A DNA stretch of 61,640 nt from a virus. The DNA is taken from the IMG/VR virus record IMGVR_UViG_3300001688_000037; one strand, 5' to 3'. Shown piece after piece: positions 226 to 60,039 of the stretch; the stretch's first letter is position 1; every line of letters starts with the position of its first letter. The notes under the pieces were generated by a model. The model ran no database searches. It saw only the letters and a list, made by a program, of their open reading frames with translations, and was not told where the DNA came from. The translations under genes and the position numbers were made by a program.

Positions 226-1953
226 TTACGCCACTAGCTGTACATAAAGATCCATAGTACGCCATGTATAATTACTTCCATAATCATAGGAGGTTAAGTA
301 GTGGATATTACTTTCAGTATGTATCTTGCTCCATTTCTCCCTAGATACATACTGAGTTTTCTCTACTACTATCCCCTCACTCAATATCGGTACTATGACT
401 ATAACCTTATCTGGGAAGATCTGCACCTGCTGTAAGTGCTCCAAGAGATAATCTACTCTAAGCTGGCTATTTTCATTTACATACTTAGCTACCTCTGCAT
501 CTATGTTAGCTAGTGTTTTATCAATCTCTGCCAGATCCTCCAGATTAGTATTATTAGCTTTTATCTGCCTCTTAAGCTCTATGATCCTGTTTTCTATAAC
601 ATCCGCTTTTCTACTATATTCCTCTTTTGTGAGTACTCCATCTAAGTAGGCATCCAGTAGCTTATCCTTACGGAGCTCCTCTTTCTTTAGATCTGCCTCT
701 GTAGCCCCTCCATTTGCCTCTAGGAGCTGTTTTCTTAGTTTCTGGAGCCAGTTTACCAGATCCGCCTTAATTACCTCTGTGTTAGCCTGTAACTGCTCCG
801 ATATGATACTCATAATCTCCATAAGAGATCCGTAGGAGATATTCTCATTATCGCATCCTGCCTCATTGATCTCTCCAGCCTTACCTAAGGTACCGTTTCT
901 CTTTCTGGTATATCTTCCTTTAGTCTGTTTGGTACTACATACCCAGTACTCCTCCTTAGAGGTTTTCTGTTTTCTCCAGTAAGGAGCTCCACATACTCCA
1001 CATACCAGCTTACCGCTAAAGGAGTATCCGCTGGTTTTCTTTCCTCTGCCTCTGTGATCGGATCCTGTAGCTATCACTCTCTCCTCATGGATCTTACAGA
1101 TAAGCTCCCACTCCTCCTCTGTTACAATCGGAGGAAAAGCTCCTTTTACATATACCCACTCCTCCTCTGGGAGTTTAATGGTTTTCTTACTTTCAAAATC
1201 GTGCCTCTCTTTGTTAATTATCATGGTACCTACATTTTTACAATCATACACAAACTTAGGTATATCCATAGGTTTCCACGGTTTCCCCACCGTATTTCTG
1301 TAGCCTGCATCGTTAAGCTCCTTAGCTATGAGAGTAGATCCTTTTCTAGCCATGATACCCTCACACATAAGCCTCCTTACCTTAGCCTGCTCTGGATTAA
1401 GATAATACTTACCATCTTTCTTATCCCAGCCAAATACATTACCGCTACCCTGTAGATCTATCTCCTTACCCTGTCTAGCTTTCTCAATTCTGCCATCATG
1501 GTAGTTATGGAGCTTTTTGGAGAGGTTTCTACTAAAATCCTCTGCTATGATAGCTTTAATACCTGTAATAAGGGCATCATCTGGAGAGTAAAATTTCCCA
1601 TCCAGATACATATACAGGAGCTTTCCAGCCTGTACTAAGCGGTTAATAAACAGGTACCAATCTAAGGTATTTCTCATAAGCCTCTCTTGATCCTTGATTA
1701 CTACCACATCAAAATTATCACTAAAAAGATCATCATAGAGCCTCTGGTACTCATCTCTGCCCTTTACCATCGTACCAGTTTTACTCCGATCTATATACTC
1801 ATCTACCAATACCCAGCCATGCTTAGCTATGGCGTTACGGTTTTCCTCTATCTGGAGCTCTATAGCGTTTAACTGCTCCTCCTCTGCTGTGGATACTCTG
1901 GCATAAAATACAGCCCTTAGCCCCACTCGATCCTTTATCTTTGCATAAAACAT
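226..1953 (-). CDS. Large serine recombinase (integrase)
   Basis: About 575 aa. N-terminal resolvase core with RAVFYARVSTAEEEQ (catalytic Ser), Cys-rich zinc ribbon (CGVCGAPYW..WVC), C-terminal coiled coil. Start moved to ATG 1953, 8 nt after AAAGGAG. Confidence 0.85.
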   Translation of the reverse strand: MFYAKIKDRVGLRAVFYARVSTAEEEQLNAIELQIEENRNAIAKHGWVLVDEYIDRSKTGTMVKGRDEYQRLYDDLFSDNFDVVVIKDQERLMRNTLDWYLFINRLVQAGKLLYMYLDGKFYSPDDALITGIKAIIAEDFSRNLSKKLHNYHDGRIEKARQGKEIDLQGSGNVFGWDKKDGKYYLNPEQAKVRRLMCEGIMARKGSTLIAKELNDAGYRNTVGKPWKPMDIPKFVYDCKNVGTMIINKERHDFESKKTIKLPEEEWVYVKGAFPPIVTEEEWELICKIHEERVIATGSDHRGRGKKTSGYSFSGKLVCGVCGAPYWRKQKTSKEEYWVCSTKQTKGRYTRKRNGTLGKAGEINEAGCDNENISYGSLMEIMSIISEQLQANTEVIKADLVNWLQKLRKQLLEANGGATEADLKKEELRKDKLLDAYLDGVLTKEEYSRKADVIENRIIELKRQIKANNTNLEDLAEIDKTLANIDAEVAKYVNENSQLRVDYLLEHLQQVQIFPDKVIVIVPILSEGIVVEKTQYVSREKWSKIHTESNIHYLTSYDYGSNYTWRTMDLYVQLVA

Positions 1954-2137
1954 CCTGTACACTCCTTTACGATCCTGTTATTTTGCTCCTGTGAGCTCCT
2001 GTGTGCCTCACAGAGCCACAAAAAGTATCTTAGGGTAGATTTCCCTACCCCCTAAAAATTAACCTGCCTTAAATCGGCTAATTTTCAGTATGTATCTATT
2101 ATACAACCCTTATATAAAAATAGCAACAAAAAAAAAA

Positions 2138-2177
2138 GAGGGGAGATACCAGCCAATAATAGCCAATATCTCCCCTC
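2138..2177 (-). terminator. Rho-independent terminator after the endolysin gene
   Basis: 11-bp stem gaggggagata/tatctcccctc, followed on the minus strand by a T10 run (plus A-run 2128-2137). Confidence 0.75.
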
Positions 2178-2206
2178 TCACTCTATAGGTAAATTATAGG
2201 AGTGCC

Positions 2207-3136
2207 TTAAGGTAATTTAATGATCTGCCCTACATGGATCAAATTCTTATTTTTGATACCGTTGAGAGTTACCAGAGCATCTACTGTAGTACCGTATTTT
2301 TTAGCAATCTTACTAAGGGTATCTCCCTTAACTACTTTGTAAGTTTTGCCAGAGCTTTTACCTGCAATATCCGCCTCATTAGTCCAGCCATATACTGTAG
2401 ATCCCTTACCTGCTACTGCTTTCAAGTGGTAAGGATGAGGTTTTCCCTTACTTACTGCTGTAACCTGTGCTAAGCCAGCCTTACACGCCTTAGCTACACC
2501 GCCCTTATAGGAGCTTGTGTAGTGTAGGCATCCTGTAAAGTTTACAATATCTCCTACATTGTACTTAAGCTCATCTGTAACTACAGGAGTACTAGGAGTA
2601 ACAGGCTTAGCCTCCTCCTTTTCTTTCTCTGTAGCCTTACTAGCATACTTAGGAATACCAAAACCACGGATACACTTAGCATTTACCTTAATGTTTCTGT
2701 ATCCTACTGAATTACTGATATTGCCCTCTACGATTTTCATAGTACCGTTAGTAACGGATACTACAATACCTACATGATCGGAGTAACCTGTGTTATCTCC
2801 TACACCGTTATCCTCCCAATCATAGAAAATATAATCTCCTGCCTTAGGAGTATAGTTTTCGTTTTCCTGCCAGCTACCAAGTTTCTTAAAGAGCTCAATA
2901 TGCCTCTGGCATCCACACTCTGTAGGGATAATATCTGTGAGCCCTGCCTCAATAGCTACAGCGGATGCAAAGGTAGAGCACCAAGCATCTGTATACTTAA
3001 CTTTGTAACCCACCGCTAAAGGCTTATGTGCATTGTAAATATCAATGATTTTCTTGTGAGATCCATCACTCTCTTTACAACCTACCCAGCCAGTAGCAAT
3101 CTTAACGATTTTCTCTCTAAGCTGTTTCTCTGTCAT
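2207..3136 (-). CDS. Endolysin: CHAP/NlpC-P60-type peptidase domain with C-terminal LysM
   Basis: Cys-His core (DAWCSTFAS ... SDHVGIVVS ... VEGN). C-terminal Lys[30 protein letters not shown]. Sits in the lysis cassette. Confidence 0.8.
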
Positions 3137-3166
3137 GGTTAAATACCTCCTTAACTCATGTTAAAA

Positions 3167-3189
3167 GGGAGAGCCATTACAGCTCTCCC
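3167..3189 (-). terminator. Hairpin/terminator between holin-like gene and endolysin
   Basis: 8-bp stem gggagagc/gctctccc, loop TGTAATG on the minus strand, followed by TTTTAA. Confidence 0.5.
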
Positions 3190-3195
3190 TCCTGC

Positions 3196-3516
3196 TTATT
3201 TCAATTTCAAATTGTGTACCTGTTCGATTAACTGGAGTACCTTATCATATCCCACCATAGCTCCTACCCATACCGCTACAGCCATAAGTACCATACAAAG
3301 GATATTAGGCGGAGTAAATGCAATCCCTAAAAAGATGTACATAAGAGCGGTACCGCCAATCCCTACGATAATGGAAATAATGAGTACTACTACATTAGAG
3401 GAGTACTTTACTCTCATATTATCCAGAAATTTCTTTACCGCCTCTGTAAAGAGGGATACTGCTACTGCCAAGATAACCAAAAGTGCCATAAAAAGTGTAA
3501 GTGTCATTTCCTGCAC
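3196..3516 (-). CDS. Holin-like membrane protein
   Basis: 106 aa, three hydrophobic helices, charged C-terminus, immediately upstream of the endolysin. Confidence 0.55.
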   Translation of the reverse strand: MQEMTLTLFMALLVILAVAVSLFTEAVKKFLDNMRVKYSSNVVVLIISIIVGIGGTALMYIFLGIAFTPPNILCMVLMAVAVWVGAMVGYDKVLQLIEQVHNLKLK

Positions 3517-3522
3517 ACCTCC

Positions 3523-3963
3523 TTAATAATTTTGGATCTCTATCTCACTCTGGATAGCCTCCTCTAAGGCTCCATCCAGCTTAGTATCCATCATCCTATC
3601 TATCTTATCAATCTCCTCCATAATGAGGTTATACTCCTCCTCTGGGAGCCGATCCTTAAGCCTTATCTCCAGCCTTAAGCGGAGTAACACAAAACGGATC
3701 TTAGCCTTAGATAGGTTTTCGATCTTAGCCTTATTGAGATAGAAAACAATGGAGGCACCAAAGATACCTCCTGTGGTTAATATAATCTGTGTGGCGTAAC
3801 TGGAAATATCATAACCCTCTTTCATATCTGCCCTCACTAAGAAAAGAGATAATACAAAGAGTGCTCCTGTTACTATTACCAGCTTTTTACTAAACTCCGT
3901 TTTACGCCTAGCGGAGCTTAGAGATAATATGGATCCCCTCCTTTTGGCTTTCTTCTTTGCCAT
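3523..3963 (-). CDS. Membrane protein of the lysis cassette (function unknown)
   Basis: 146 aa. Basic N-terminus (MAKKKAKRRG), two hydrophobic helices, coiled-coil C-terminus. Confidence 0.5.
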   Translation of the reverse strand: MAKKKAKRRGSILSLSSARRKTEFSKKLVIVTGALFVLSLFLVRADMKEGYDISSYATQIILTTGGIFGASIVFYLNKAKIENLSKAKIRFVLLRLRLEIRLKDRLPEEEYNLIMEEIDKIDRMMDTKLDGALEEAIQSEIEIQNY

Positions 3964-3979
3964 AAGTCAACACGCTCCC

Positions 3980-4288
3980 TTACTTTAAGCCCAGAGATAC
4001 CGCAAGGTATCCTAAGATAATGGTTACTAAGCCAGCCACAATAAGCCACTTAAATTTTTCCCACTTATCTCCATCTTTGCTCTCCAGCTTATCTAATCGT
4101 GAGATCGTATCATTAAGATCCCCTCTCATGTATTTAGTTTCCACCGCTAACTCTTTGATAGCTCCAATAAGCTCATCGTTTTTTTCAATAGCCTTATCGT
4201 GCTCATCCAGCCTATGAGAGTTACTCTTAGAGCGGTTTTCCACTTCGGTTAGCCTGTGCTCAATCTGTATCTTTTCTGCCTCTGTCAT
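3980..4288 (-). CDS. XhlA-like lysis-associated protein
   Basis: 102 aa. N-terminal coiled coil plus a single C-terminal TM helix (WLIVAGLVTIILGYLAVSLGL). Layout and position match XhlA of PBSX-like elements. Confidence 0.55.
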   Translation of the reverse strand: MTEAEKIQIEHRLTEVENRSKSNSHRLDEHDKAIEKNDELIGAIKELAVETKYMRGDLNDTISRLDKLESKDGDKWEKFKWLIVAGLVTIILGYLAVSLGLK

Positions 4289-4463: not shown

Positions 4464-4519
4464 AGTCGGTACCTCCTTTCTAAAGAATAACTTTAGGATA
4501 AAATTGATAACCATACCAA

Positions 4520-4627
4520 TTACTCCTCATTTTCTAAGAGCTTTTCCACCTCTGGGCGGAGCTTTTCTGGAACATCCTCCAGAGTTTTAAGCCCTTTTCT
4601 AATAAGATCTGCGTATACCTGTGCCAT
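4520..4627 (-). CDS. Small protein (35 aa), paralog of 4338..4463
   Basis: ATG 4627 follows AAAGGAGATTAGCT. Reads MAQVYADLIRKGLKTLEDVPEKLRPEVEKLLENEE. Shares the pattern xxYAxLIxKGxKTxxDVPExL with its neighbour. Confidence 0.55.
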   Translation of the reverse strand: MAQVYADLIRKGLKTLEDVPEKLRPEVEKLLENEE

Positions 4628-4646
4628 AGCTAATCTCCTTTCTGCC

Positions 4647-4925
4647 TTACAGCATCATCTCATATACATCCACTAAGGCTAACTGGAGGCTAGTTGTCTG
4701 CTCCTCCAGAGAGGCGTTTTGAGCTGTTAAGATCTGGATATACTCATCCTTTGTATAGATGATCTGCTCCGCAATTTCCCAGCCATCAAAGCCAGTACCC
4801 ATCTCATCATCCTTAGCCTCCTCATGGATCTCCTTGATACCATTGTTAATGATAACATGGTAATCATCCTGCTCCATCGGTAATACTTCTGGAGCTGTAC
4901 TCCTTACGCTTGTGAATTTCTGCAT
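4647..4925 (-). CDS. Hypothetical acidic protein downstream of the RT (tail-fibre-associated, XkdW-position)
   Basis: 92 aa. AAGGAGG lies 9 nt upstream of ATG 4925. Overlaps the RT 3' end by 62 nt. Confidence 0.55.
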   Translation of the reverse strand: MQKFTSVRSTAPEVLPMEQDDYHVIINNGIKEIHEEAKDDEMGTGFDGWEIAEQIIYTKDEYIQILTAQNASLEEQTTSLQLALVDVYEMML

Positions 4926-6123
4926 TGCCTTTTACCTCCTTTAAGTAGTATTCGTGCATATATTCCACATTAGGCTCCACATATTTATGATATAAGCGGT
5001 AGCTATCACAATGTTGTAGCCAGCCTTTGTAGCTATTAAATGAGCACCACTCACTATAAGTAGGGCTCACATTATTTTCTCTCTTTTTAGATATTGCTAA
5101 CATTTTCCTCTTGAAACTCTTACAAGTGGATTTTCTAAGGAGTGTGTACTCTCCAAAGAAACGATAGCCTACAAAATCAATCCCCCTAACCTTTGAGGGA
5201 AATACCTGCCAGTTATGCTTAATAACCTGTTTAAGGTTTTCCGCTAAAAACTCATCAATTTCTCTCTTTAGCTGGTGTAGTTCCTCTTTCGATTTACCAA
5301 AGATCACTATATCATCCATGTATCTGTAGTAATACTTAACTCCCTTAACCTCTTTGAGCCAATGATCCAAAATGGATAGATTAAGATTACCGCTATACTG
5401 GGATACATAGTTTCCTATAGGTATTCCTACACCATCTACAAACTCTTTTCCATTATCATCTATGATAATATTTACTAGCACTCCTAACCGCTGGAGTATC
5501 TCTAAGTTTTCCTCCGTAGCTGGACAAGTGCTAATACTATCTATGATCTCATCCAGTAACCATATAAGCTCTGGATCCTTAAAGATTTCCCTGTACCTCT
5601 GTTTGAGTACCTCATGCACTATAGTAGGGTAATACTTCCGTACATCTAATTTCAAACAGTAGGCGGTACCCTCTGGATCCGATACTAAGATACTAGGTAT
5701 CCACTTTTGGTAGACTACCTTACCATCCTTTTTAATCTTCTTTGTGTATCCCCTTAAATCATTTACGATAGGCTGGATACCCTTATTAGGTATGGCACTA
5801 TATGTATCCTTAGTTAAATTCTTTAAGAGATAGGGCTCTATAACCTGTAGGATAGCCCATTGACATATACGGTCTGGATAATAAGGGAGCTTGTAGATTT
5901 CCCTCTCTTTCTTTCCCTCCGTTTTGGTAAATACCTCATAATCGGAGGTTTTATATGTATGATCTATAAGGCTTGTTTGCAATCTCCGTAAGTGCTTATC
6001 TAGGCTACTTTCAACCTGCTTTACTTCCGCATACCACCCTTTTCCTCTCTTTGCGTTCTTGTGGGCTTTTCTTAGGTTATCCATATCACAGATTTTAGAG
6101 TAAAGATCTCCTGTACCTTTCAT
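4864..6123 (-). CDS. DGR-type reverse transcriptase
   Basis: YRYMDDIVIFG catalytic box and IGNYVSQYSGN (IGxxxSQ, DGR-typical motif 4). Start set to ATG 6123 (MKGTGDLYSKICDMDNLRKAHKNAKRGK) behind AAGGTGG. Cognate TR/VR pair immediately upstream. Confidence 0.9.
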   Translation of the reverse strand: MKGTGDLYSKICDMDNLRKAHKNAKRGKGWYAEVKQVESSLDKHLRRLQTSLIDHTYKTSDYEVFTKTEGKKEREIYKLPYYPDRICQWAILQVIEPYLLKNLTKDTYSAIPNKGIQPIVNDLRGYTKKIKKDGKVVYQKWIPSILVSDPEGTAYCLKLDVRKYYPTIVHEVLKQRYREIFKDPELIWLLDEIIDSISTCPATEENLEILQRLGVLVNIIIDDNGKEFVDGVGIPIGNYVSQYSGNLNLSILDHWLKEVKGVKYYYRYMDDIVIFGKSKEELHQLKREIDEFLAENLKQVIKHNWQVFPSKVRGIDFVGYRFFGEYTLLRKSTCKSFKRKMLAISKKRENNVSPTYSEWCSFNSYKGWLQHCDSYRLYHKYVEPNVEYMHEYYLKEVKGNAEIHKRKEYSSRSITDGAG

Positions 6124-6370
6124 ATCTGTATACCCACCTTTGCTATTTTTGTATGTGCATAAAGAGGAGCCAGCTATCCGCCATAGCACCTCTGTACTTC
6201 CTTGCAAGCATCAGTAAAAACGGTTTACAGATAAACTCTGCACATAGGCACCTCTTTATGATTTTTTACCAGCCCTCACAAGAGAGGCTTTTTATTTTCT
6301 GGCAAGAGCCACGGTAGCTGTTACTCACTTAGGGTTTTATTTCTAAGTGTCATGGTATAACACTATTTAT

Positions 6371-6496
6371 GCACATATAGTAAGTGACTGCTGATATTCC
6401 GATTACGATTAGAGGAGGTATTATTCACATTAAGATACCATGCTCCACAATTAGAGCCATTATTCCATTTACCACCCAATTTAGTAATTAAGAAAC
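6371..6496 (-). repeat. DGR template repeat (TR)
   Basis: 126 nt, non-coding, aligns without gaps to 6612-6737. 38 adenines on the minus strand. In the VR frame it is rich in AAT/AAA codons. Confidence 0.9.
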
Positions 6497-6591
6497 TCTT
6501 TACAGCTACCGACAAAAGGGTATTAAAAAAGAGCCTTTACAGCCCTCTTTCAATACCCCATTGATTTTATTATTTTATTGTTACGATGGTT

Positions 6592-8388
6592 TTAGGCTAC
6601 CTGTGTTTGTGGCACATACAGCAAGCGACCGCCGACAGCCCGACCACGACTAGAGGAGGCATCACCCACACCAAGAAACCACGCCCCACAAGCAGAGCCA
6701 CCATCCCACCTACCACCCAACGTAGCAATCAAGAAACCGTTGTAGGTGTAATTCTGCCAGTAGTAATCTCCTACTGGTAAAGCATCGGATCCTGCACTTG
6801 CTGTAGGTAAAAATACCTCTGGGTAATCCTCATTGTAGCCTACTGCACTCCAGTAACCGTTACTGTGGCTAAGCTGTGTACCGTAGTTATCGTAGCCCTC
6901 TGTAGTGTTATCTACCATAGCCTCTCCTGCTCTGTGGAGGTAAGCATCATTTAAGCCCTTAGCTAAGATGTTAATACCATCCAACCAAGTCCAGATATTA
7001 CCCCAGAGGTTTTCCTCTCCTCTGTAGGATACAGAGCACTTACCATCTACACCAGCGTTAGGATCAATACCAGATCCATTACCTAAGCTAGAGGTAGCAC
7101 CTGTATTTACTGCCATGTTAGTAGCACCATCATCTACAAAATCAGCTACACCTCTACCGATCTTTCTCTGGCAATCCATAGAGCCATACTCTACCATGAT
7201 AAGCCATTGAGTAACCGCTAAGGCGTAGATATTATGGCTCTGCCATCCTGCACCTCTGTTATTGCACAAAGCTCTAACATTTGCTCTGGTTAAGTTCTGG
7301 GTTAATCCGCTGGCTGGCTTAGCACCTGCGATACTAGAGAGCATATCTGTAGCAAAATCCGCTACCTGCTCATCTGCCTTAAGGTATGCTGTAGCGGAGC
7401 TATCATAAATAGCACCCTCATAAGCGGAAAGATAGATCTTATCCTGCAAGATACCATTTTCATCCTTAAACGCCTGCGGAGCCTTAAAGCCTACCTTAGG
7501 AGTAGGAGAGATATAATATCTAGCCTTTGTGATTTCCTTACCCTTACCAGAGGTAGCATTTTTCATCTTAACAGGTACGGTTTTCACATAAAAGATAGGC
7601 TGTTCTACCATTACCTGTACCTGTGTACCGATAGGGTATTCTTTTTCTCCAATAGTGATAGCCTGTGTTAGAGCTCCTGTTTCCGTGTACCCTGCATCTC
7701 CACGATAAGCAACTACTACACCCTCATTAGTGATATTACATCTCTTTCTAGCCCACGGAGAGAGGCTATCAAAATCTGCACCAGCGGTAAGATTTTCTGC
7801 TCCTGCCAATCTGGTAAATTTACGGTTAGCATAATCAACCTCTACACCGTAAACATCATCCTCCTCATAGCCTACAAAAGATCTTACATCGTCAATCTGG
7901 CTCTGTAAGTCTACGATCTGGGCTACTGTTGCTGTAGCTGTAGGATCTACCTCTACTGTTACACTGGAGGCATTAGATACCGCTGTTATCAGATCCACCA
8001 TAAGGCTAGATACACCGATACCATTAAACGGAGGCATCCAATCCGCTGTAGCGGTACTCTCATCCGCTACGGAAATACTATAGAGGATTTCTCCATCCTG
8101 CGGATCCGTAGCATATAAGCCAATATTTCTAACATAGTAGCCAGCTTTCAGCGTTTCGTTATTGAAACTAGCACTTACCTTTACATTACTGTTATTCTGC
8201 TTAATAACAGAGGCTACCGCTGTAGATTGCTTAATAGTACCGATCCCTGTTTTAGAGGCAAGATCCCCACTAAGAGTATTTTCCGATACTGCAATTTTTG
8301 TAAAATTCAGTTTGCAAGTACCAGCTACTACCTTAGCTAAAAGAGCCTGCCCTTTAGTTGTGATTACTGCACTCTTAAAAGCACCCAT
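6592..8388 (-). CDS. Tail fibre / receptor-binding protein, DGR target (C-terminal C-type-lectin/FGE-like fold inferred)
   Basis: 598 aa after the baseplate genes. C-terminal WGNIWTWLDG and GGRWDGGSACGAWFLGV features. The last ~50 codons contain the VR. Confidence 0.8.
   Translation of the reverse strand: MGAFKSAVITTKGQALLAKVVAGTCKLNFTKIAVSENTLSGDLASKTGIGTIKQSTAVASVIKQNNSNVKVSASFNNETLKAGYYVRNIGLYATDPQDGEILYSISVADESTATADWMPPFNGIGVSSLMVDLITAVSNASSVTVEVDPTATATVAQIVDLQSQIDDVRSFVGYEEDDVYGVEVDYANRKFTRLAGAENLTAGADFDSLSPWARKRCNITNEGVVVAYRGDAGYTETGALTQAITIGEKEYPIGTQVQVMVEQPIFYVKTVPVKMKNATSGKGKEITKARYYISPTPKVGFKAPQAFKDENGILQDKIYLSAYEGAIYDSSATAYLKADEQVADFATDMLSSIAGAKPASGLTQNLTRANVRALCNNRGAGWQSHNIYALAVTQWLIMVEYGSMDCQRKIGRGVADFVDDGATNMAVNTGATSSLGNGSGIDPNAGVDGKCSVSYRGEENLWGNIWTWLDGINILAKGLNDAYLHRAGEAMVDNTTEGYDNYGTQLSHSNGYWSAVGYNEDYPEVFLPTASAGSDALPVGDYYWQNYTYNGFLIATLGGRWDGGSACGAWFLGVGDASSSRGRAVGGRLLYVPQTQVA
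6612..6737 (-). repeat. DGR variable repeat (VR) inside the tail-fibre 3' end
   Basis: Differs from the TR at 31 positions, all at TR adenines (27 A>G, 3 A>C, 1 A>T on the coding strand). No mismatch at C, G or T. Confidence 0.9.
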
Positions 8389-28410: not shown

Positions 28411-29388
28411 TTATTCTGCTACCAGATCCTCAAAGATCTTAGGTACTTCTCTCTGCATATCATGTAACAAAGGGATAGCTACCTCTACCATCTGTGGATG
28501 AGGCTTTCCTGTAACGCCTACCGCTCTCAAATTAAAGAAATGCCTCCAGCCCTTAAGGTTAGTAGTCATGGCTACCTCTGTTTTAAGGCTTGTAGGGAGT
28601 ACTGCTCTAGCCTCCTGTGGAGTAGCTCCATCTGCTAACATTCTAAGGTAGCTCTTTTCTGCCTCCTCACAGGCACTTACCCACGCTCCGTATCTCTCAC
28701 TCCAGTTATCCACCGTAAGATCCACGCCATCTACCTTTAAGTAACATGGCTCAATAACAGTAATTTCTCCAGCCTTAGAGCCATAGTTACAATATCTGGT
28801 ACTTTCCTGTGCAAAAGAGGCTACTCTGTGGCGTACTATCTCATGTGATACGCCTCTATCTACAGTAAATACTACTGTAATATCCTCATGGATCAATCTT
28901 TCCTCTTTACCCAGCGGTTTAGGATCTACCTCTACTGGAGAAATTTCTCCATCATAAGGCATTAAAAGAACATCCTCAAAATATACCTCATATTTTCTCG
29001 ATCTAAGGATATTCACTAAGCCTCTGGAGAAATTAAAGCCCTTATCTGTAGCTAAGATAATAAACTCTCTCCATGCTCTAAGATTTCCAGATACTAAGTA
29101 GCTCTCAATACCTGTAAATCTAAGAAATGTATTATAGCCCTCATTTTCTGCCAGCCATGCTACAATACTCTTAAGCTGTTTGTATTCTTCCTCCATAAAT
29201 GCTACTACTAAGGAGGAGTGCTCTATCATAGCGGTATGATTACTCTTAATAAGAGATCTTACCATCTTCTTAGCGGATCCCTCTTTGATTTTATCCTCAC
29301 TCTTATAGCATATTCTGGCTACTCTCTCGATCTTATCTGTAGGATCTGCAATCTTTACAATCTCATAACCTGCTTTTACTACCTGCAT
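28411..29388 (-). CDS. thyX: Flavin-dependent thymidylate synthase ThyX
   Basis: ThyX signature RHRVASFAQESTRYCNY (RHRxxSxxxxSxRY). Start set to ATG 29388 (MQVVKAGYEIV), 8 nt after GGAGG. Confidence 0.85.
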   Translation of the reverse strand: MQVVKAGYEIVKIADPTDKIERVARICYKSEDKIKEGSAKKMVRSLIKSNHTAMIEHSSLVVAFMEEEYKQLKSIVAWLAENEGYNTFLRFTGIESYLVSGNLRAWREFIILATDKGFNFSRGLVNILRSRKYEVYFEDVLLMPYDGEISPVEVDPKPLGKEERLIHEDITVVFTVDRGVSHEIVRHRVASFAQESTRYCNYGSKAGEITVIEPCYLKVDGVDLTVDNWSERYGAWVSACEEAEKSYLRMLADGATPQEARAVLPTSLKTEVAMTTNLKGWRHFFNLRAVGVTGKPHPQMVEVAIPLLHDMQREVPKIFEDLVAE

Positions 29389-29389
29389 C

Positions 29390-30004
29390 TTAAATACCTC
29401 CGCTGTACACAGTTTCAATAACTGCCTTAATAATATCCTCTGGATCCGCTCCTGCTGGTACTGTTACCTCCAAAGTACCTACACAAACGCCCTTACCATC
29501 CTCTGTATCTGCAAAAACAGGGTTAAAAGTGCATTTAGGCTCTTTGCTATGGAGCATTTCCTGTACTTTCTTGATTTCCGCCTTACTCTCCTCATCTGGA
29601 GTATGTAAGATCTTTCCTGTGCCAGTTACCATTTTAATAAATTCCTCTGGATCTACATCCTCTGGAAACTTAACAATAATAGGCTTTACGCTACAAGCCT
29701 CCGCCTCTACTATGGCTCTCATAATCGGATCCAATCCATAAAGAATAGTATCCAGCCTATCATCATGCTTAGGTTTTACAGCCTTTTCTCTTTCTGCCTC
29801 AATAGCATCAATCTCAAACTGGATATACTCCTGTGCTTTCTTAAGATCCTGCACAATATCATCCTTACGCCCTGCTCTGGCAATATACTTTACCGCATTT
29901 CCCAGATTGAAATTTAAGCCCCAATCACGGATAACATCCTTAGGCTCATACTTTCTACCCTCTACATAGTGTGAGGGCTGTTTAATAACATCTCTTTTAC
30001 TCAT
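29390..30004 (-). CDS. DUF3310-like protein with C-terminal extension
   Basis: N-terminal KQPSHYVEGRKYEPKDVIRDWGLNFNLGNAVKYIARAGRK pattern. Start set to ATG 30004 behind AAGGAG. Confidence 0.5.
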   Translation of the reverse strand: MSKRDVIKQPSHYVEGRKYEPKDVIRDWGLNFNLGNAVKYIARAGRKDDIVQDLKKAQEYIQFEIDAIEAEREKAVKPKHDDRLDTILYGLDPIMRAIVEAEACSVKPIIVKFPEDVDPEEFIKMVTGTGKILHTPDEESKAEIKKVQEMLHSKEPKCTFNPVFADTEDGKGVCVGTLEVTVPAGADPEDIIKAVIETVYSGGI

Positions 30005-34842: not shown

Positions 34843-35256
34843 CTAAATTAGTTTTCCGCTTAAGTGATCCATCTCATGCTGTATAATTTCTGCAAAGTAA
34901 CCGCTATAACGCTCTTTTACATATCTGTTACCCTTTTGGTGCATAATCTCTACACCCTTAAATCTGGTTACTTTTCGTGAGCCCTCTAAGCTCATACAGC
35001 TCTCCTCCGCCTCATACATAGCTCCTAAGTGTTTGGTAATAATCGGATTTACAAAAGGGATAAATTTCTCTCCTGTAAAGGCTACAAACACTCTCACAGG
35101 CTCCGCTATCTGGATGGCGGATAATCCTACACATCTATCATTATACTCCTCTGCGGTATCAATAAGATCCTGTATGATCTGCTTAGCCTCATTAGGCTTA
35201 ATCTTTTTACTTACCTGCTGTAGGATCTCTGGATCCTTAGTAATCTCTCTAACCAT
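34843..35256 (-). CDS. def: Peptide deformylase
   Basis: All three PDF motifs are present: GLSAIQ (GxGxAAxQ-like), EESCMSLEG (EGCLS-like), QHEMDHLSG (HExxH). Confidence 0.75.
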   Translation of the reverse strand: MVREITKDPEILQQVSKKIKPNEAKQIIQDLIDTAEEYNDRCVGLSAIQIAEPVRVFVAFTGEKFIPFVNPIITKHLGAMYEAEESCMSLEGSRKVTRFKGVEIMHQKGNRYVKERYSGYFAEIIQHEMDHLSGKLI

Positions 35257-44016: not shown

Positions 44017-44248
44017 GTTTACACTTACCTCCTCTCCGCTGTTTTATCCACAGCTCTAATCTCTTAATCCTGCCTCTTTTTCTTAAGGCTTTCTTTTGCT
44101 CCGCCTGCTCCATATCCTTTACAGCCTTAATCCACTCATCATAAGGAATACTGTAATAACAGCTAAGTAACATCCCAGCAAATCCGATAAGCAAAGCTAC
44201 TACACCTAAAGCACCTATAACTATACCCACAATTATTAACGCCCTCAT
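44003..44248 (-). CDS. Small membrane protein
   Basis: 81 aa. N-terminal TM helices, basic C-terminus. Confidence 0.5.
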   Translation of the reverse strand: MRALIIVGIVIGALGVVALLIGFAGMLLSCYYSIPYDEWIKAVKDMEQAEQKKALRKRGRIKRLELWIKQRRGGKCKHGKR

Positions 44249-44496
44249 CTCCGCCTATGCCTCCTTAATATGTTTCTGCATTGTACATAGAGATCATCAT
44301 CAATATGTTTAAGAGCATGGAGATCTCTGTGGAGCTGGGATTTACTTATACCAAATTCCCTAGCCATTTTACGGATGCTATCCTTAGGATTATCCAGTAG
44401 CCACTCCGCCTCCTGCTTACACCGATCCTCTATCTCCTGCCTCCTAAACTCTGCTATCTCATGTTTAGAGAAATATTCATACATCCAGCTCTCCAT
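44245..44496 (-). CDS. SpoIIID-like HTH protein (putative)
   Basis: 83 aa. SIRKMAREFGISKSQLHRDLHAL. Confidence 0.4.
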   Translation of the reverse strand: MESWMYEYFSKHEIAEFRRQEIEDRCKQEAEWLLDNPKDSIRKMAREFGISKSQLHRDLHALKHIDDDLYVQCRNILRRHRRR

Positions 44497-45429: not shown

Positions 45430-45886
45430 CGTAGTATCCTCCTAACCAGCTACTCAAATTATAGGAATATCTAACCCTTTTCTTTTGCTGTTCGATCCTT
45501 ACACCGTTTTCTCTGCACCACTCTACAGGGATGCTCTTTCTATCTGTGGAATTGATAAAAGCTACCATATCCATAACCGCTATGTAGTATGTTTCCTCCA
45601 GATCCCTATAATTGATAATAAAGCCTCCATATATGCCCTTATGCTCCACCGCCTTAGCCATTCCCTGTATCTGGTTAGGGCGGATCTTCTCAATAGGGAT
45701 ACTCTTACCCTTATGAGTTTTAAGCTCTAAGAGAAATGTATAAGGGTATCTGTAAAGGCGGTAATCCGCTGGGTTACTTACTCCGTAAAATCCTGCTGTA
45801 TCATCCTTATAACGCTCTACATAGAAATCACTAGGAAAACAGGCTTTTATTTCTTCCTCAAAAATCTTACCTATACCTTTAGCCAT
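45413..45886 (-). CDS. RecU-like Holliday junction resolvase
   Basis: Start set to ATG 45886 (MAKGIGKIFEEE), overlapping the upstream TGA. ADYRLY...FLLELKTHKGKSIPIEKIRPNQIQGM...GGFIINY follows the RecU pattern. Confidence 0.55.
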   Translation of the reverse strand: MAKGIGKIFEEEIKACFPSDFYVERYKDDTAGFYGVSNPADYRLYRYPYTFLLELKTHKGKSIPIEKIRPNQIQGMAKAVEHKGIYGGFIINYRDLEETYYIAVMDMVAFINSTDRKSIPVEWCRENGVRIEQQKKRVRYSYNLSSWLGGYYDGKEM

Positions 45887-46863
45887 CACATACACCCACA
45901 ACTTTCCTGTAAATCATCCGCACTAAGAGCCTCTTCTAAAATCTCTGCATCTGTGGGCTCCTTTTTAGGGCTTTTCTTCTCTGTTTTCTTTGTACCCTTA
46001 GATTTACCTGTACCGCTCTTTTTCGTGCCTCCTGTGCCTTTTCTGGCTTTCTTAGGAGGGTTAGGATGCACCCAGTTACCAGCATCTACTAAGCCACACT
46101 CATTTTTATACTTACAGTAAGTGCATTTATCCTCATTCTTTGCTGGAGGTATACCTGTTTTACAAGCGGTATTTACTGTGTTAATCTTTGCTCTTACCTT
46201 TTCTTTCATCTCATCGGTAATTTTCCAGAGGTAAATCTTTTTCTTACAGAAATTACGATCCTCATAGAGGAAAAGTACATAATCAATACCTAAGCCCATA
46301 CCGTAGCTAGTAGCCTGCCACTTGTGATCCTCCTTAGGCTCATAACGGTTACTAAACTGGTAAGTACTCTCTGTTTTTACCTCCAGTATTACCTCTTTAC
46401 CCATGAAACGGATAACACCATCTGGCTGGAAAAAGATACTAAGCTCATCGTTTTTACATCTGCCCTCTGTATGATCCTCATTCCATCCTACAAACTCTGT
46501 TTTAATACCTTTTTGATTAGCCTCTTTTACTACTTCCTCCAGATCTAAGCACTCTACACCATCCATAATCTCTACGGTATGCTGTATATCTAAGTGCCTA
46601 TCTGTACCGCTCTGGCAAATCTCAATAAGAGGTACATCCGATTGCTCCCCATTTAAGGATCCGCTGTGTACTCTCTGGAAAAAGATCATACGCTCACAGC
46701 CATACATAGAGCTAGGGCGGATATAATCCGATGGGGCTACCTGCCTCTCCGCTAACTCTTTCTTTCTTACTGCCTCCTCATACGCCTTAAGAAAATTATC
46801 CTCAAAGGATACATTACTGGCGTTTTTACCTTGTGCTACTTTAATCAAACTTGCTAAGCCCAT
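45886..46863 (-). CDS. PD-(D/E)XK exonuclease, Cas4-like (Cys cluster), with Lys-rich tail
   Basis: DGVIRFMGKEVILEVKTES catalytic core. N-terminal Cys (YGCERM) plus CTYCKYKNEC. Confidence 0.6.
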   Translation of the reverse strand: MGLASLIKVAQGKNASNVSFEDNFLKAYEEAVRKKELAERQVAPSDYIRPSSMYGCERMIFFQRVHSGSLNGEQSDVPLIEICQSGTDRHLDIQHTVEIMDGVECLDLEEVVKEANQKGIKTEFVGWNEDHTEGRCKNDELSIFFQPDGVIRFMGKEVILEVKTESTYQFSNRYEPKEDHKWQATSYGMGLGIDYVLFLYEDRNFCKKKIYLWKITDEMKEKVRAKINTVNTACKTGIPPAKNEDKCTYCKYKNECGLVDAGNWVHPNPPKKARKGTGGTKKSGTGKSKGTKKTEKKSPKKEPTDAEILEEALSADDLQESCGCM

Positions 46864-47132: not shown

Positions 47133-47724
47133 TTATACTTCATTTCCCCAGCAATCCCAGCCATCTACCGCCTGCCTTGCAAAGAGTTCTATTTTATGTA
47201 GCCCCCCCCCCTGCTAAGAGTTTTACAATACGATCTCTAGTTTCTGCTGGCTTTTTACTATGCTCCTCAATATGGCTAAGGATAACGCTATGTACTCCTG
47301 CATCTGCTCTCTTAGGCTTTCCTTTAATACCTAAGAGGCACAGCTCCGCATTAGCTCTAGTCCAGTTACCCATACCCCAGAAAAGGCTATCCGCTTTCTT
47401 ATTCTGCTTAACCCATGTAAAAGCACAGGTTTTATAATTAAATCCCCACGCCCTCATAAGATCAAACGCCTCCTCTAACATCGGCATAGTAACCCACATA
47501 AAGAGCACACAATCCTCATCCGCAAGATCCGCTACTGGGAGCTTTTTAATATCCTGTATGCTCATTACATCATACTTACAACCAGCTCCTCTATCTCCTG
47601 CCAGAGCTTTATCTCTATAGCTCCACGGAGGATCTGCATAGATTATCTGGTATTTTTGCTCCGTATTAAAAATATCTACTTTCAAAGTAATACCCTCCTT
47701 TTGTGTTTGATCGATCCTAATCAC
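47133..47724 (-). CDS. MT-A70-family N6-adenine DNA methyltransferase, interrupted by a frameshift at a G10 tract (as read: 47194..47724, 176 aa)
   Basis: DPPW motif (IIYADPPWSY). The as-read frame ends ..KLLAGGGAT*. With one G fewer it reads AGGGLHKIELFARQAVDGWDCWGNEV*, ending at 47133. Confidence 0.75.
47202..47211 (-). other. Homopolymer tract (C10 on plus, G10 on the coding strand) inside the methyltransferase 3' region
   Basis: gta g cccccccccc tgc read directly. The longest G/C homopolymer I saw in the window. Confidence 0.9.
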
Positions 47725-47746: not shown

Positions 47747-47950
47747 CTAATTTTGAGGAGGTAACTCCTCTAAGATCTTAAAATGATGCACCTCTCGCTT
47801 ATTACCCTTTTTGATCTGTACTCTCCGTGTGGTACCTACCTCTAAAGGAGTAGTACACTCATCCAGAGTACGCTCTTTCTTATCCTCTACATCATATACT
47901 CTATACCTCACTCTGGAGAGCCTCCTTTCTAGCCTTATCCATAGCCTCAC
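47747..47950 (-). CDS. Hypothetical protein (start uncertain)
   Basis: 67 aa. 50-nt overlap with the upstream gene. No clear RBS at the annotated ATG. Confidence 0.35.
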   Translation of the reverse strand: MRLWIRLERRLSRVRYRVYDVEDKKERTLDECTTPLEVGTTRRVQIKKGNKREVHHFKILEELPPQN

Positions 47951-48590
47951 GCTCCTTATACTCCTCCAGCGTGATCTCTATAAAGGAAGTATCTCCCTCC
48001 TTAAAGTATCTGTTTACCTCTACTCTTTCTCCGTTAGCTCTATTGATATAGAGGATAGCCATTGTATCATAATCTCCATTTTTAGGATCTGTGAGGAGCT
48101 CACTACATACAATCTCATCCGCTCTATTGCTAGGCATATAAGGCATGGTAAGAGGGAATAAATCACTATAAATCTTGCCTACAAAGCCATTATGCCAGCT
48201 TACAGTAGGGTTATCCTCACTAACACAGTAACATCTATTTATATCTTTATAGGTTACTGTGCCATCTTCTGCCACATCCTTAAACAAACTGCTCATTCTC
48301 TTACATTGATAATGTTTACCGTTTGCATCGTCTGTATGTGTATAATTCCATACATCCTCTGTATCCTCAATAGGAGTAAGAGGCTTACCATCTATCAATC
48401 TGTTAAGGATCTGCTTAGTAAAACAAATACTAGCCCCACTATGCCCTTGATTACAAAGTACCTTAAATGCCTCTAAAGCTCCCTCATAACAAGCTACACC
48501 ATAATCCCAATCCTCACTCTCTGGATTATCTCCTCTTTCTCTCTTAGAGGCTATCTCTACCTCTCTTTTAGCCCATTCCTGCATACTCAT
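47901..48590 (-). CDS. Hypothetical protein
   Basis: 229-aa ORF. 4-nt overlap with the upstream gene. Confidence 0.5.
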   Translation of the reverse strand: MSMQEWAKREVEIASKRERGDNPESEDWDYGVACYEGALEAFKVLCNQGHSGASICFTKQILNRLIDGKPLTPIEDTEDVWNYTHTDDANGKHYQCKRMSSLFKDVAEDGTVTYKDINRCYCVSEDNPTVSWHNGFVGKIYSDLFPLTMPYMPSNRADEIVCSELLTDPKNGDYDTMAILYINRANGERVEVNRYFKEGDTSFIEITLEEYKEREAMDKARKEALQSEV

Positions 48591-60009: not shown

Positions 60010-60039
60010 ATTATACTATATACCCCCTCAAAGTTTCAA
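60010..60039 (-). promoter_or_regulatory. Sigma-A-type promoter TTGAAA-18-TATAAT
   Basis: Minus strand reads TTGAAACTTTGAGGGGGTATATAGTATAAT. Shares GGGGGTATATA with the 40.7 and 41.5 kb promoters. Confidence 0.6.

Follow-up and report, generated by a model that had tools for sequence, protein, structure and literature searches.

In the DGR (diversity-generating retroelement) of the Bordetella phage BPP-1 (mtd-avd-TR-brt), the accessory protein Avd is essential (PMC5758913), and TR117–129 of the template region (TR) pairs with Sp47–56 of the spacer, ending at the priming adenosine A56. Cassettes of simpler composition are also known. Wu et al. (2018, PMC5758913) count 75 of 372 DGRs as accessory-free Architecture A1, report DGRs without avd in their Lineage 3 and have already proposed Avd-independent retrohoming for accessory-free cassettes. 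Some DGRs without avd encode acidic accessory proteins of 160–169 amino acids, CH1. As for structured RNAs, Weinberg et al. (2017, PMC5737381) connected RT-10 alone with a DGR and gave RT-17 no assignment.

The DNA analysed here (the window, 61,640 nucleotides) represents the complete genome, of about 61.5 kb, of a temperate myophage. It very probably carries an accessory-free DGR, ordered target–TR–RT and without Avd, that rewrites the tip of a tail fibre at adenine-templated positions (Table 1). A preliminary description had read the locus as a DGR, and this reading is supported by the adenine asymmetry between TR and the variable region (VR), the affinity of the reverse transcriptase (RT), the fold of the target, the gene context and the variation of VR among relatives. 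The element lies where that description had placed it, between the baseplate and fibre genes and the lysis cassette of a contractile-tailed phage, with the tail-fibre gene on one side and, on the other, a small conserved gene ahead of the lysis cassette. The proposed PBSX-like tail module is likewise present (YqbQ-like, sheath initiator, DUF2577, DUF2001 tail tube and XhlA-like genes). The host is probably a member of the Lachnospiraceae.

Table 1 Features of the locus, ordered by position in the window
Feature	Position	Strand	Description
orf92, 92-aa acidic protein gene	4647..4925	minus	context, outside the DGR; overlaps RT 3′ end by 62 nt
DGR reverse transcriptase (419 aa)	4864..6123	minus	Pfam RVT_1, YMDD, IPIGNYVSQ
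TR–RT spacer RNA (Sp analogue), 247 nt	6124..6370	minus	structured domain (RNAalifold and MFE)
Duplex, spacer-side strand	6152..6163	minus	TTTATGCACATA, then CAAAAAT; just upstream of RT
Spacer helix P6	6187-6183/6177-6173	minus	
Spacer long-range helix	6256-6247/6171-6162	minus	
RT-17 (RF03020)-like stretch	6254..6316	minus	match limited to first hairpin and A-rich segments
Spacer helix P3	6288-6285/6275-6272	minus	
Spacer helix P2	6311-6308/6303-6300	minus	
Spacer closing stem	6316-6312/6271-6267	minus	
Spacer helix P1	6349-6344/6331-6326	minus	
Duplex, TR-side strand	6366..6377	minus	TATGTGCATAAA
TR	6371..6496	minus	non-coding as a gene; 38 adenines; AAT/AAA-rich in VR frame
Long hairpin between fibre stop and TR	6513..6563	minus	inverted repeat, 22-nt arms, 7-nt loop; T-run in 3′ arm
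Tail-fibre gene (598 aa), DGR target	6592..8388	minus	N-terminal tail-collar fibre domain, C-terminal CLec-fold receptor-binding domain
Fibre C-terminal 299 residues	6595..7491	minus	CLec/FGE-like fold (AlphaFold2 and Foldseek), VR at end
VR	6612..6737	minus	fibre codons about 551–592; 31 mismatches to TR
Fixed VR 3′ block, IMH-like	6612..6636	minus	VR = GTCGGCGGTCGCTTGCTGTATGTGC, TR = ATCAGCAGTCACTTACTATATGTGC; five invariant A>G differences

Recomputed base by base, the alignment of TR with VR is gap-free, with an offset of 241 nt between them. All 31 mismatches fall on TR adenines (27 A>G, 3 A>C and 1 A>T): 31 of the 38 adenines are changed in VR, and none of the 88 C, G or T positions differs (P = 4.5e-23 for all 31 mismatches landing on 38 adenines of 126 nt). 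These values agree with the preliminary description, as do both translations and the 95 nt that separate the fibre stop codon (6592–6594) from TR. Because the mismatches are confined to template adenines, ordinary mutation is excluded as their source. Homology between the two regions ends abruptly on the 3′ side and is lost gradually on the 5′ side, where one further A>G (6497/6738) is followed by a non-A mismatch. A search of the window with TR adenines masked to N (up to 3 mismatches; shuffled expectation 0) found no copies beyond TR and VR, and no second VR emerged from an adenine-tolerant scan of the two strands.

The A>G bias noted earlier stands as a count, but five of the 27 changes form a fixed, IMH/IMH*-like block and are not products of random mutagenesis. 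In each of the eight close relatives compared, VR has G at the sites of TR adenines 6392, 6389, 6385, 6381 and 6378, apart from locus L085, where one of the five sites is already G in the TR itself. By analogy with BPP-1, this block may function as an IMH. A>G accounts for 87% of the variable substitutions in the window, a more extreme value than the 62% of substitutions found in 54 TR/VR pairs of the clade. The excess is, as judged from these sequences, a trait of the entire clade, and could stem from selection rather than from the RT.

The RT gene has a Shine–Dalgarno sequence (AAGGTGGG) upstream of its ATG at 6123, and its product matches phrog_1423 (E = 2.6e-121). Both motifs reported for it before are present, YMDD and the IGxxxSQ-type IPIGNYVSQ, which aligns to IPIGSLTSQ of the BPP-1 enzyme, bRT. 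The presumed DGR affinity holds, the best PDB sequence match being bRT (8ub7, E = 1.2e-25) and not a group II RT (E = 4.7e-10). Insertions specific to its lineage are also present, as is a C-terminal extension, which two other Avd-less RTs have and one Avd-linked RT lacks (alignment A6). Weak NCBIfam matches to group II RT/maturase, Drt3a, Drt2 and retron RT could indicate an enzyme from a retron, group II intron or defence system, with a fibre tip made hypervariable by mutation, recombination and selection. However, the four scores (71, 55, 41 and 30 bits) lie far under their cut-offs (300, 200, 390 and 235 bits, respectively), Rfam finds no group II intron or retron RNA in the window, and adenine-restricted mismatches are impossible by ordinary mutation. 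We regard such an origin as having almost no chance of being correct; it is effectively refuted by the adenine asymmetry, the sub-cut-off scores, the bRT affinity and the TR/VR pairs in relatives.

No Pfam bAvd match was found anywhere in the window, although the same model detects Avd in a distant relative (L027, E = 1.3e-18), and a custom clade-derived Avd HMM matched no ORF of at least 50 aa in the six frames of the window. Among relatives, this HMM matches 51 of the 57 loci whose RT identity is below 33%, but only 6 of the 109 at 33% or more. The lack of an Avd gene places the cassette with the published accessory-free architecture (A1) and not with the BPP-1 type. It is nevertheless conceivable, if unlikely, that a cofactor is required that was missed, namely a divergent Avd-like protein, the 92-aa acidic protein or a host-encoded factor. 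The essential role of Avd in BPP-1 and the acidic CH1 proteins speak for this, as does orf92 itself, which lies after the RT gene and overlaps it in 39 relatives, some with RT identity as low as 45%. Yet orf92 homologues directly follow the fibre gene in four prophages without RT or TR (L166–L169), so the linkage of orf92 to the RT is phage synteny; the protein is also much shorter than CH1. Neither bAvd model finds a match in 103 of the 109 related loci, and a published profile search (PMC5758913) likewise recovered no remote avd for such cassettes. We conclude that orf92 is an ordinary gene succeeding the fibre gene and retain the accessory-free cassette as the preferred reading.

Rfam RT-17 is a relative of the structured RNA that forms the spacer between TR and RT, although the window itself, at 23.7 bits, stays below the gathering score of 40.4. 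At the same position, four relatives pass (L007, 68.4; L010, 67.3; L009, 45.2; and L008, 40.9 bits). RT-17 fills the TR–RT spacer in relatives; the window has its first hairpin and 3′ GCAYAUACAAA tail, but exceeds it by about 100 nt in spacer length and has additional helices. RNAalifold (alignment A3) gives 48 pairs, 18 with compensatory changes, and the MFE of −69.7 kcal/mol corresponds to z = −3.09. A helix between the TR 3′ end and the spacer was recovered by RNAalifold unprompted and appears in the single-sequence MFE fold. In a MAFFT-only alignment of 32 lineages, 86.9% of the duplex cells are paired; both sides change in 38 cells, compared with 12.4 ± 4.2 after shuffling (0 of 500 shuffles reach 38), and five of seven pairs show compensatory change. 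In a test of best duplex length, half of the loci exceed the 95th percentile of shuffles; the segments tested are short and AT-rich, and the case for the duplex therefore rests on the position-anchored covariation. A6378, the most 3′ mutated adenine, adjoins the duplex on its 5′ side, and none of the eight close relatives examined has a change at A6376, inside it. A6378 is the predicted first templated nucleotide and A6152 the predicted priming adenosine, like Sp A56 of BPP-1.

The target matches the tail protein family phrog_5302 (E = 5.7e-161), with residues 7–152 corresponding to Pfam Phage_tail_fib. Its C terminus was modelled confidently by AlphaFold2 from a 70-sequence alignment (mean pLDDT 91.0, pTM 0.89), and the CLec/FGE fold suspected from its sequence was recovered, the best structural matches being known DGR variable proteins. 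In a Foldseek search of the PDB, TaqVP of Thermus aquaticus (5vf4) ranked first (E = 4.9e-10, probability 1.00, TM 0.55), followed far more weakly (E about 0.03) by Mtd (1yu1), TvpA (2y3c) and FGE (1y1j). TaqVP is also a CLec-fold DGR variable protein; it is, however, bacterial, not a phage tail fibre, and shares 13–15% sequence identity. The hairpin downstream of the gene is probably its terminator. Counterparts with compensating sequence changes are present in W-clade relatives; the hairpin is not among the terminator-pattern matches in a scan of 4500–6800. The DGR-less prophages L166–L169 retain a fibre homologue whose C terminus is VR-like, indicating that this phage group includes members that lost the cassette or represent an ancestral state without it.

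About 160 related RT loci were retrieved, most with their own adenine-specific TR/VR pair. A set of 54 non-redundant pairs shows differences at 63% of TR-A sites and at 0.61% of non-A sites. All 100-odd relatives with at least 33% RT identity have VR–TR offsets of 160–360 nt and TR–RT gaps of 105–300 nt. Comparison between samples, our substitute for read mapping, revealed the adenine-confined VR polymorphism expected of a DGR: the TRs of L001, L002 and L003 are 100% identical to that of the window, and their VRs differ from it essentially at TR adenines alone. In L001, 24 of 126 VR positions differ (19%), 23 of them at TR-A sites and one not (T>G), whereas the RTs are ~99.5% identical (genes differ by 0.6%) and TR plus spacer shows 0 differences in 373 nt, pointing to very recent retrohoming. 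L002 differs at 11 VR positions and L003 at about 29, with a 3-nt insertion; in both, non-coding DNA beside the identical TR differs by 11–17%. The DGR could instead be a fossil with complete parts, its VR differences dating from earlier activity, which would suit the retained fibre of the DGR-less prophages. Against this stand the intact RT ORF with its catalytic YMDD, the perfect conservation of TR and spacer, and the contrast in divergence seen in L001. We consider a fossil improbable, and the DGR is, from these comparisons, apparently active.

The locus shares with BPP-1 a phage tail-fibre target whose VR lies in a C-terminal CLec fold, TR-to-VR transfer specific to adenines, an RT with IPIGxxxSQ and YMDD whose closest solved relative is bRT, pairing of the TR 3′ end with a downstream spacer segment ending at an adenosine, and fixed differences between the VR and TR 3′ ends (compare IMH/IMH*). 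It differs in that avd is absent, TR follows the target stop rather than avd, the RT is longer than the 328-aa bRT, the spacer relates to RT-17 rather than to the RT-10 that marks the BPP-1 spacer, and the probable host is not Bordetella; no DNA-level similarity between the two genomes was found. The core layout without an accessory gene is that of Architecture A1, and the absence of avd is a likeness in gene content to Lineage 3; the available text of PMC5758913 mentions neither the TR:spacer duplex nor a link to RT-17. The closest RT of a deposited phage is ORF175 of Psychrobacillus phage Perkons (MT325768; 47.8% identity over 98% of the query). Perkons has the VR–TR–RT layout without avd (offset 222 nt, 32 adenine mismatches), keeps the TR-3′:spacer pairing (TTTGTGT/ACACAAA) and scores 31.4 bits against RT-17, but comes from Antarctic soil, has a genome of 137 kb and targets a protein of 355 aa.

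We propose that an RNA covering TR and the spacer would be transcribed with, or beside, the RT message, and that the spacer would fold into a multi-helix domain in which 6163–6152 pairs with the TR 3′ end (6377–6366). As in the TR:Sp duplex of BPP-1, this pairing would position A6152 to prime cDNA in cis from A6378. The RT would copy TR faithfully save at adenines, where it would misincorporate, and the cDNA would replace the homologous VR. The fixed 3′ block, with G in VR where TR has A, would keep this transfer one-way, from TR to VR.

The element belongs to the already described Avd-less DGR class, and its kind is not new; the details added here are the missing Avd, the RT-17-related spacer, the covarying TR:spacer duplex and the fixed 3′ block. 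For the phage, about 20 of the last 42 fibre codons, in the CLec-fold tip, would be recoded, which would alter receptor specificity, and rewriting of VR may in this way affect host range.

The two repeats align without gaps on the minus strand at an offset of 241 nt. Recounting every position gives 31 mismatches, each at an adenine of the downstream copy, the TR (27 A>G, 3 A>C and 1 A>T). Thus, 31 of the 38 TR adenines are changed but none of the 88 other TR bases (P = 4.5e-23 for all 31 mismatches falling on the 38 adenines by chance). This recount agrees exactly with the preliminary description, whose gap of 95 nt between the fibre stop and the TR, fibre ORF (598 aa), quoted translations and RT ORF (419 aa) were also re-derived as stated; realignment of the 126-nt pair reveals no mismatch at a base other than adenine. 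When the TR, with its adenines masked to N, was searched against the window, only two sites matched, where shuffles predict none, and neither this search nor an adenine-tolerant scan of both strands found a remote second VR in the window. Our own adenine-tolerant TR/VR detector was applied to all of the RT-relative loci fetched (genomes, viral contigs and assemblies). Most of these loci, like the window, have their own adenine-specific repeat pair adjoining the RT, and in 54 non-redundant TR/VR pairs from the closer clade, 63% of TR-adenine sites differ versus 0.61% of non-adenine sites.

Positions of features in the window and, where a locus handle is given, in fetched relative loci
Feature	Position	Strand	Details
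Terminal direct repeat	1-88 and 61553-61640		exact, 88 bp
orf92	4647-4925	-	acidic, 92 aa; overlaps RT 3' end
RT ORF	4864-6123	-	YMDD and IPIGNYVSQ present
TR-RT spacer	6124-6370	-	247 nt
TR:spacer helix, RNAalifold	6377-6368 with 6161-6152	-	outermost helix
TR:spacer helix, single-sequence MFE	6377-6366 with 6163-6152	-	12 bp
Second copy of TATGTGCA	~6238-6245	-	within spacer
TR	6371-6496	-	126 nt
Hairpin	6513-6563		long, with T-run
Fixed block	6612-6636	-	VR 3' end
VR	6612-6737	-	126 nt
Tail-fibre gene	6592-8388	-	N-terminal phage tail-collar fibre domain
ThyX	28411-29418		early region
Peptide deformylase	34843-35256		early region
SpoIIID-like regulator	44245-44496		early region
Cas4-like nuclease	45886-46863		early region
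MT-A70 methyltransferase	47194-47724		early region
Tad3-matching ORF	47901-48590	-	early region, 229 aa
SNF2-helicase ORF	60028-61620		reaches nearly to window end
L003 VR	~714-842		one extra codon
L007 RT-17 match	5893-5989		Rfam
L008 RT-17 match	5899-5985		Rfam
L009 RT-17 match	3624-3711		Rfam
L010 RT-17 match	378-476		Rfam
L010 RAGATH-8 RNA	6433-6690	+	115 bits (gathering 86.7)
L166 fibre region	1788-4267		no RT or TR
L168 fibre region	2129-4264		no RT or TR

The hallmarks of DGR-clade RTs are [I/L/V]GxxxSQ in motif 4 and a catalytic YxDD, both of which are present here. The RT matches RVT_1 alone in Pfam and phrog_1423 in PHROGs (E 2.6e-121). Its best sequence match in the PDB is 8ub7 chain A (E 1.2e-25, versus 4.7e-10 for the best group II RT), which is the BPP-1 brt (tblastn, 100% identity to AY029185) and the IPIGSLTSQ of which aligns with the IPIGNYVSQ of the window. 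In deposited phages, the closest RT is that of Psychrobacillus phage Perkons (47.8%), with crAss-like phages next; phage relatives found by tblastn include RTs of Bordetella, crAss-like and Faecalibacterium phages. The RT falls far short of the NCBIfam cut-offs for group II, Drt and retron RTs (TIGR04416, 71/300 bits; Drt3a, 55/200; Drt2, 41/390; retron St85, 30/235), and no cognate group II intron or retron RNA was found, no Rfam family reaching its gathering score anywhere in the window. Sequence comparison therefore favours the DGR type that had been proposed for this RT from its motifs. Alignment with the compared RTs also places insertions or an extension at residues ~130-150, 200-232 and 380-419.

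DGR targets typically carry the VR at the 3' end of their ORF, within a variation-tolerant scaffold of CLec or Ig fold. Here, the VR corresponds to codons ~551-592 of the fibre ORF. We modelled the last 299 fibre residues with AF2 using a 70-sequence alignment (pLDDT 91.0, pTM 0.89). The top Foldseek match of this model in the PDB is the Thermus DGR variable protein TaqVP (E 4.9e-10), with much weaker matches (E ~0.03) to BPP-1 Mtd, Treponema TvpA and formylglycine-generating enzymes (FGE); a sequence-only search of the PDB with the same region returned no match. The predicted structure thus assigns the fibre C-terminus to the CLec/FGE fold typical of DGR targets, as had been suggested for the fibre tip.

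Three relative loci have a TR 100% identical to that of the window: L001 (a Logan contig from SRR32918202, with an RT 100% identical as protein and 99.5% as DNA), L002 (an NCBI assembly) and L003. Compared with the VR of the window, those of the three loci have 24, 11 and ~29 changed positions, respectively, essentially all at TR-adenine sites. The differences in L001 and L002 lie at TR-adenine positions, save one T>G in L001, and the L003 VR also has a 3-nt insertion that displaces its 5' part. Between the window and L001, the TR and spacer differ at 0 of 373 nt, the RT at 7 of 1,260 and the VR at 24 of 126; in L002 and L003, the non-coding DNA flanking the TR has diverged by 11-17%, with the TR unchanged. 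Such a pattern would be expected if the template is conserved and the target has recently been rewritten, and VR polymorphism at TR-adenine sites between samples that share an identical TR suggests that diversification is ongoing. The RT, the adenine-only repeats, the target fold and this between-sample variation all agree with the DGR interpretation as a whole. The L003 insertion amounts to one extra codon relative to its own identical TR (GG TGT TCT TAT GGC versus GG AAT AAT GGC) and lies inside the DGR variable region, in a run of AAT codons.

A feature of the repeat pair is its excess of A>G substitutions. The last five mutated TR adenines (6392, 6389, 6385, 6381 and 6378) are G in the VR of all eight close relatives examined, the exception being the relative L085, in which the TR itself is already G at one of the five positions. 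The same fixed A(TR)/G(VR) pattern is seen again in many more distant lineages, and the block is followed by TATGTGC, common to TR and VR. These positions form a fixed difference between the repeat ends, analogous to IMH and IMH*, the elements at the VR and TR 3' ends of BPP-1, and are not products of random mutagenesis; this IMH-like block explains some of the A>G excess. With the last 30 nt of the TR set aside, 20 G, 2 C and 1 T substitutions remain in the window, and across the 54 pairs of the clade, G makes up 62% of substitutions, T 21% and C 16%; the bias thus characterises the lineage, and the window lies at the extreme. Thus, the strong A>G bias of the preliminary description is real and clade-wide, but 5 of its 27 changes belong to the fixed block and not to a mutagenesis spectrum. 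Selection and RT bias, the two sources that had been proposed, are both compatible with these data, which cannot separate them.

The DGR resides in a genome of 61,552 bp that is complete and circularly assembled, as indicated by the terminal repeat, and has nearly all called genes on the minus strand. The genome encodes Phage_sheath, tube (DUF2001), Baseplate_J, Mu Gp48, YqbQ-like, sheath initiator and DUF2577 proteins, an SU10-type capsid protein, an SPP1-type portal, a terminase, a serine recombinase, a CHAP-LysM lysin, lysis-type proteins (phrog_937 'hemolysin', which is XhlA-like, and a holin-like protein), a CD1375-family protein, and PolA, DnaB and other replication proteins. Its sheath, tube, baseplate, YqbQ-like and XhlA-like proteins, together with the serine recombinase, bear out the earlier description of a PBSX-like contractile-tailed temperate phage. 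No tRNA genes were found in the window. Deposited phages provide no megablast match to the DGR region at the DNA level and no portal more than 33% identical, and a known close phage was therefore rejected. Among genome-resolved relatives, MAGs of Lachnospiraceae, Blautia and Butyrivibrio are the nearest; the host is thus probably a member of the Lachnospiraceae. The early region carries several auxiliary genes (Table). It also contains an ORF the N-terminal 123 residues of which match PF25185 Tad3 (E 4.3e-30), a type I Thoeris inhibitor family, making it a candidate anti-defence gene. The hairpin lying ~49 nt downstream of the VR, after the fibre stop and ahead of the TR, is kept in the clade with compensating changes. 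DGRs can have a hairpin near the VR that directs homing; this one is most simply the fibre terminator.

Avd is encoded in ~74% of DGRs and marks the BPP-1 type, not the whole family. Pfam searches of all called ORFs of the window gave no match to bAvd or 23S_rRNA_IVP; as a positive control, Avd was recovered with the Pfam bAvd model in L027, a distant relative (E 1.3e-18), where it lies between VR and RT. An Avd HMM built from the distant relatives of the RT itself matches 51 of 57 loci at RT identity below 33% but only 6 of 109 at identity of at least 33%, and has no match among the six-frame ORFs of at least 50 aa in the window. All closer relatives have a compact VR-TR-RT layout. Unlike the BPP-1 type, the window element thus has no detected Avd gene. 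It corresponds to Architecture A1 as outlined in a published survey, in which 75 of 372 DGRs are without accessory genes, Lineage 3 is without avd and an Avd-independent mechanism is proposed for accessory-free DGRs (PMC5758913). The element therefore belongs to a known accessory-free class of DGRs and is carried by an uncultured temperate myophage.

Homologues of orf92 follow the RT in 39 other loci, which at first suggested an accessory role. However, in four prophages without RT or TR (L166-L169), the orf92 homologue lies directly behind the homologous tail-fibre gene, 66-74 nt later in L166 and L168 and alike in L167 and L169, with no TR or RT between. The linkage of orf92 to the RT is therefore phage synteny, and we rejected it as a new DGR accessory gene; orf92 has no tblastn match in deposited phages. 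The DGR-less fibres of these prophages keep a VR-like C-terminus, ending in GGRLLYVP, reflecting either loss of the DGR cassette or an ancestral cassette-free state. The RT itself has a window-specific insertion of 19 aa, a second insertion of ~33 aa directly before the IPIGNYxSQ motif, common to the window and the relative L163, and a C-terminal extension with a basic tail, which is present in three Avd-less RTs (window, L163 and Perkons) and missing from the Avd-linked RT of L027. RT length in the Avd-less clade ranges from ~314 to 419 aa, and both internal insertions are specific to particular lineages; a larger RT was therefore rejected as a general substitute for Avd.

The spacer between TR and RT scores 23.7 bits against the Rfam motif RT-17 (RF03020), below the gathering threshold of 40.4. 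In four relatives (L007-L010), RT-17 exceeds this threshold (40.9-68.4 bits) and occupies exactly the TR-RT spacer of Avd-less DGRs. Pairing with the TR 3' end involves the conserved 3' tail of RT-17, GCAuACAA. The discoverers of these motifs tied only RT-10 to a DGR, that of BPP-1, and left RT-17 without an assigned function (PMC5737381). The window spacer works like an expanded relative of RT-17, without being filed as a member of the family. Alignment of nine spacers of the clade of the window reveals compensatory hairpins (for example, TGGC..GCCA versus TGCC..GGCA) and a long-range helix. Of the 48 pairs that RNAalifold predicts, 18 have compensatory changes, and in its outermost helix the TR 3' end pairs with an element that lies immediately before the RT; the single-sequence MFE fold lengthens the same helix (z = -3.09). 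L010, a Cloacimonadota MAG contig, also carries a strong RAGATH-8 RNA ~5 kb downstream of its DGR.

Compared with shuffles, the length of the longest TR:spacer duplex is only marginal. Thus, we used position-anchored covariation, on a 32-lineage alignment made by MAFFT alone, with 500 shuffles and slid controls. The duplex is paired in 86.9% of cells; both sides are changed in 38 cells, versus 12.4 +/- 4.2 in shuffles (0/500), and 5/7 pairs are compensatory, the covariation of the slid controls all being lower. The partner sequences co-vary among lineages (TATGTGCATA/TATGCACATA, TATGTACC/GGTACATA, TTTGTGCA/TGCACAAA, TTTTGTATATA/TATATACAAAA and GTGTTTAC/GTAAACAC). A second copy of TATGTGCA within the spacer might pair with the pre-RT element in competition with the TR 3' end, through alternative pairing or a pseudoknot. 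This copy is found in the immediate clade of the window only and is absent from the relatives L006 and L086; it was therefore rejected as the pairing partner, and pairing with the TR end is preferred. In BPP-1, the duplex is formed by TR117-129 and Sp47-56; Sp A56 serves as the primer, and copying begins at TR G117. The pairing between TR 3' end and spacer resembles this arrangement, and its covariation points to a template:primer-like duplex. By analogy, A6152 is the predicted priming adenosine and A6378 the predicted first templated base: the spacer would prime cDNA in cis and copying would start at A6378. Consistent with such a start, A6378 is the most 3' substituted TR adenine, and A6376, within the duplex, is unchanged in eight close relatives.

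Retargeting of phage tail fibres by DGRs is well known, and such elements are common in gut viromes; the general picture is therefore unchanged by this element. What is new is the link to RT-17, the covarying template:primer-like duplex and the fixed IMH-like block, an incremental advance of specialist use. We know of no experimental study of the mechanism of the accessory-free class, for which the window provides a clean and complete example: a circular genome, an intact RT, a perfectly conserved TR and natural VR variants. It adds a model, based on comparison of spacer RNAs, that includes a specific predicted priming duplex, and links RT-17, an Rfam motif with no assigned role, to DGR spacers. 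In this uncultured phage lineage, probably one of Lachnospiraceae, it also marks the receptor-binding tip as hypervariable, which matters for host-range prediction. We tentatively suggest, as a possibility somewhat short of probable, that this lineage is a truly two-component DGR, for which the RT and one RNA suffice. The role that Avd has in BPP-1, holding template and primer in position, would then fall to the RT-17-type spacer RNA, by means of the covarying duplex and a domain-closing long-range helix. Were this true, the clade would represent a natural minimal DGR and a compact tool for targeted mutagenesis, and the orphan motif RT-17 would gain a function.
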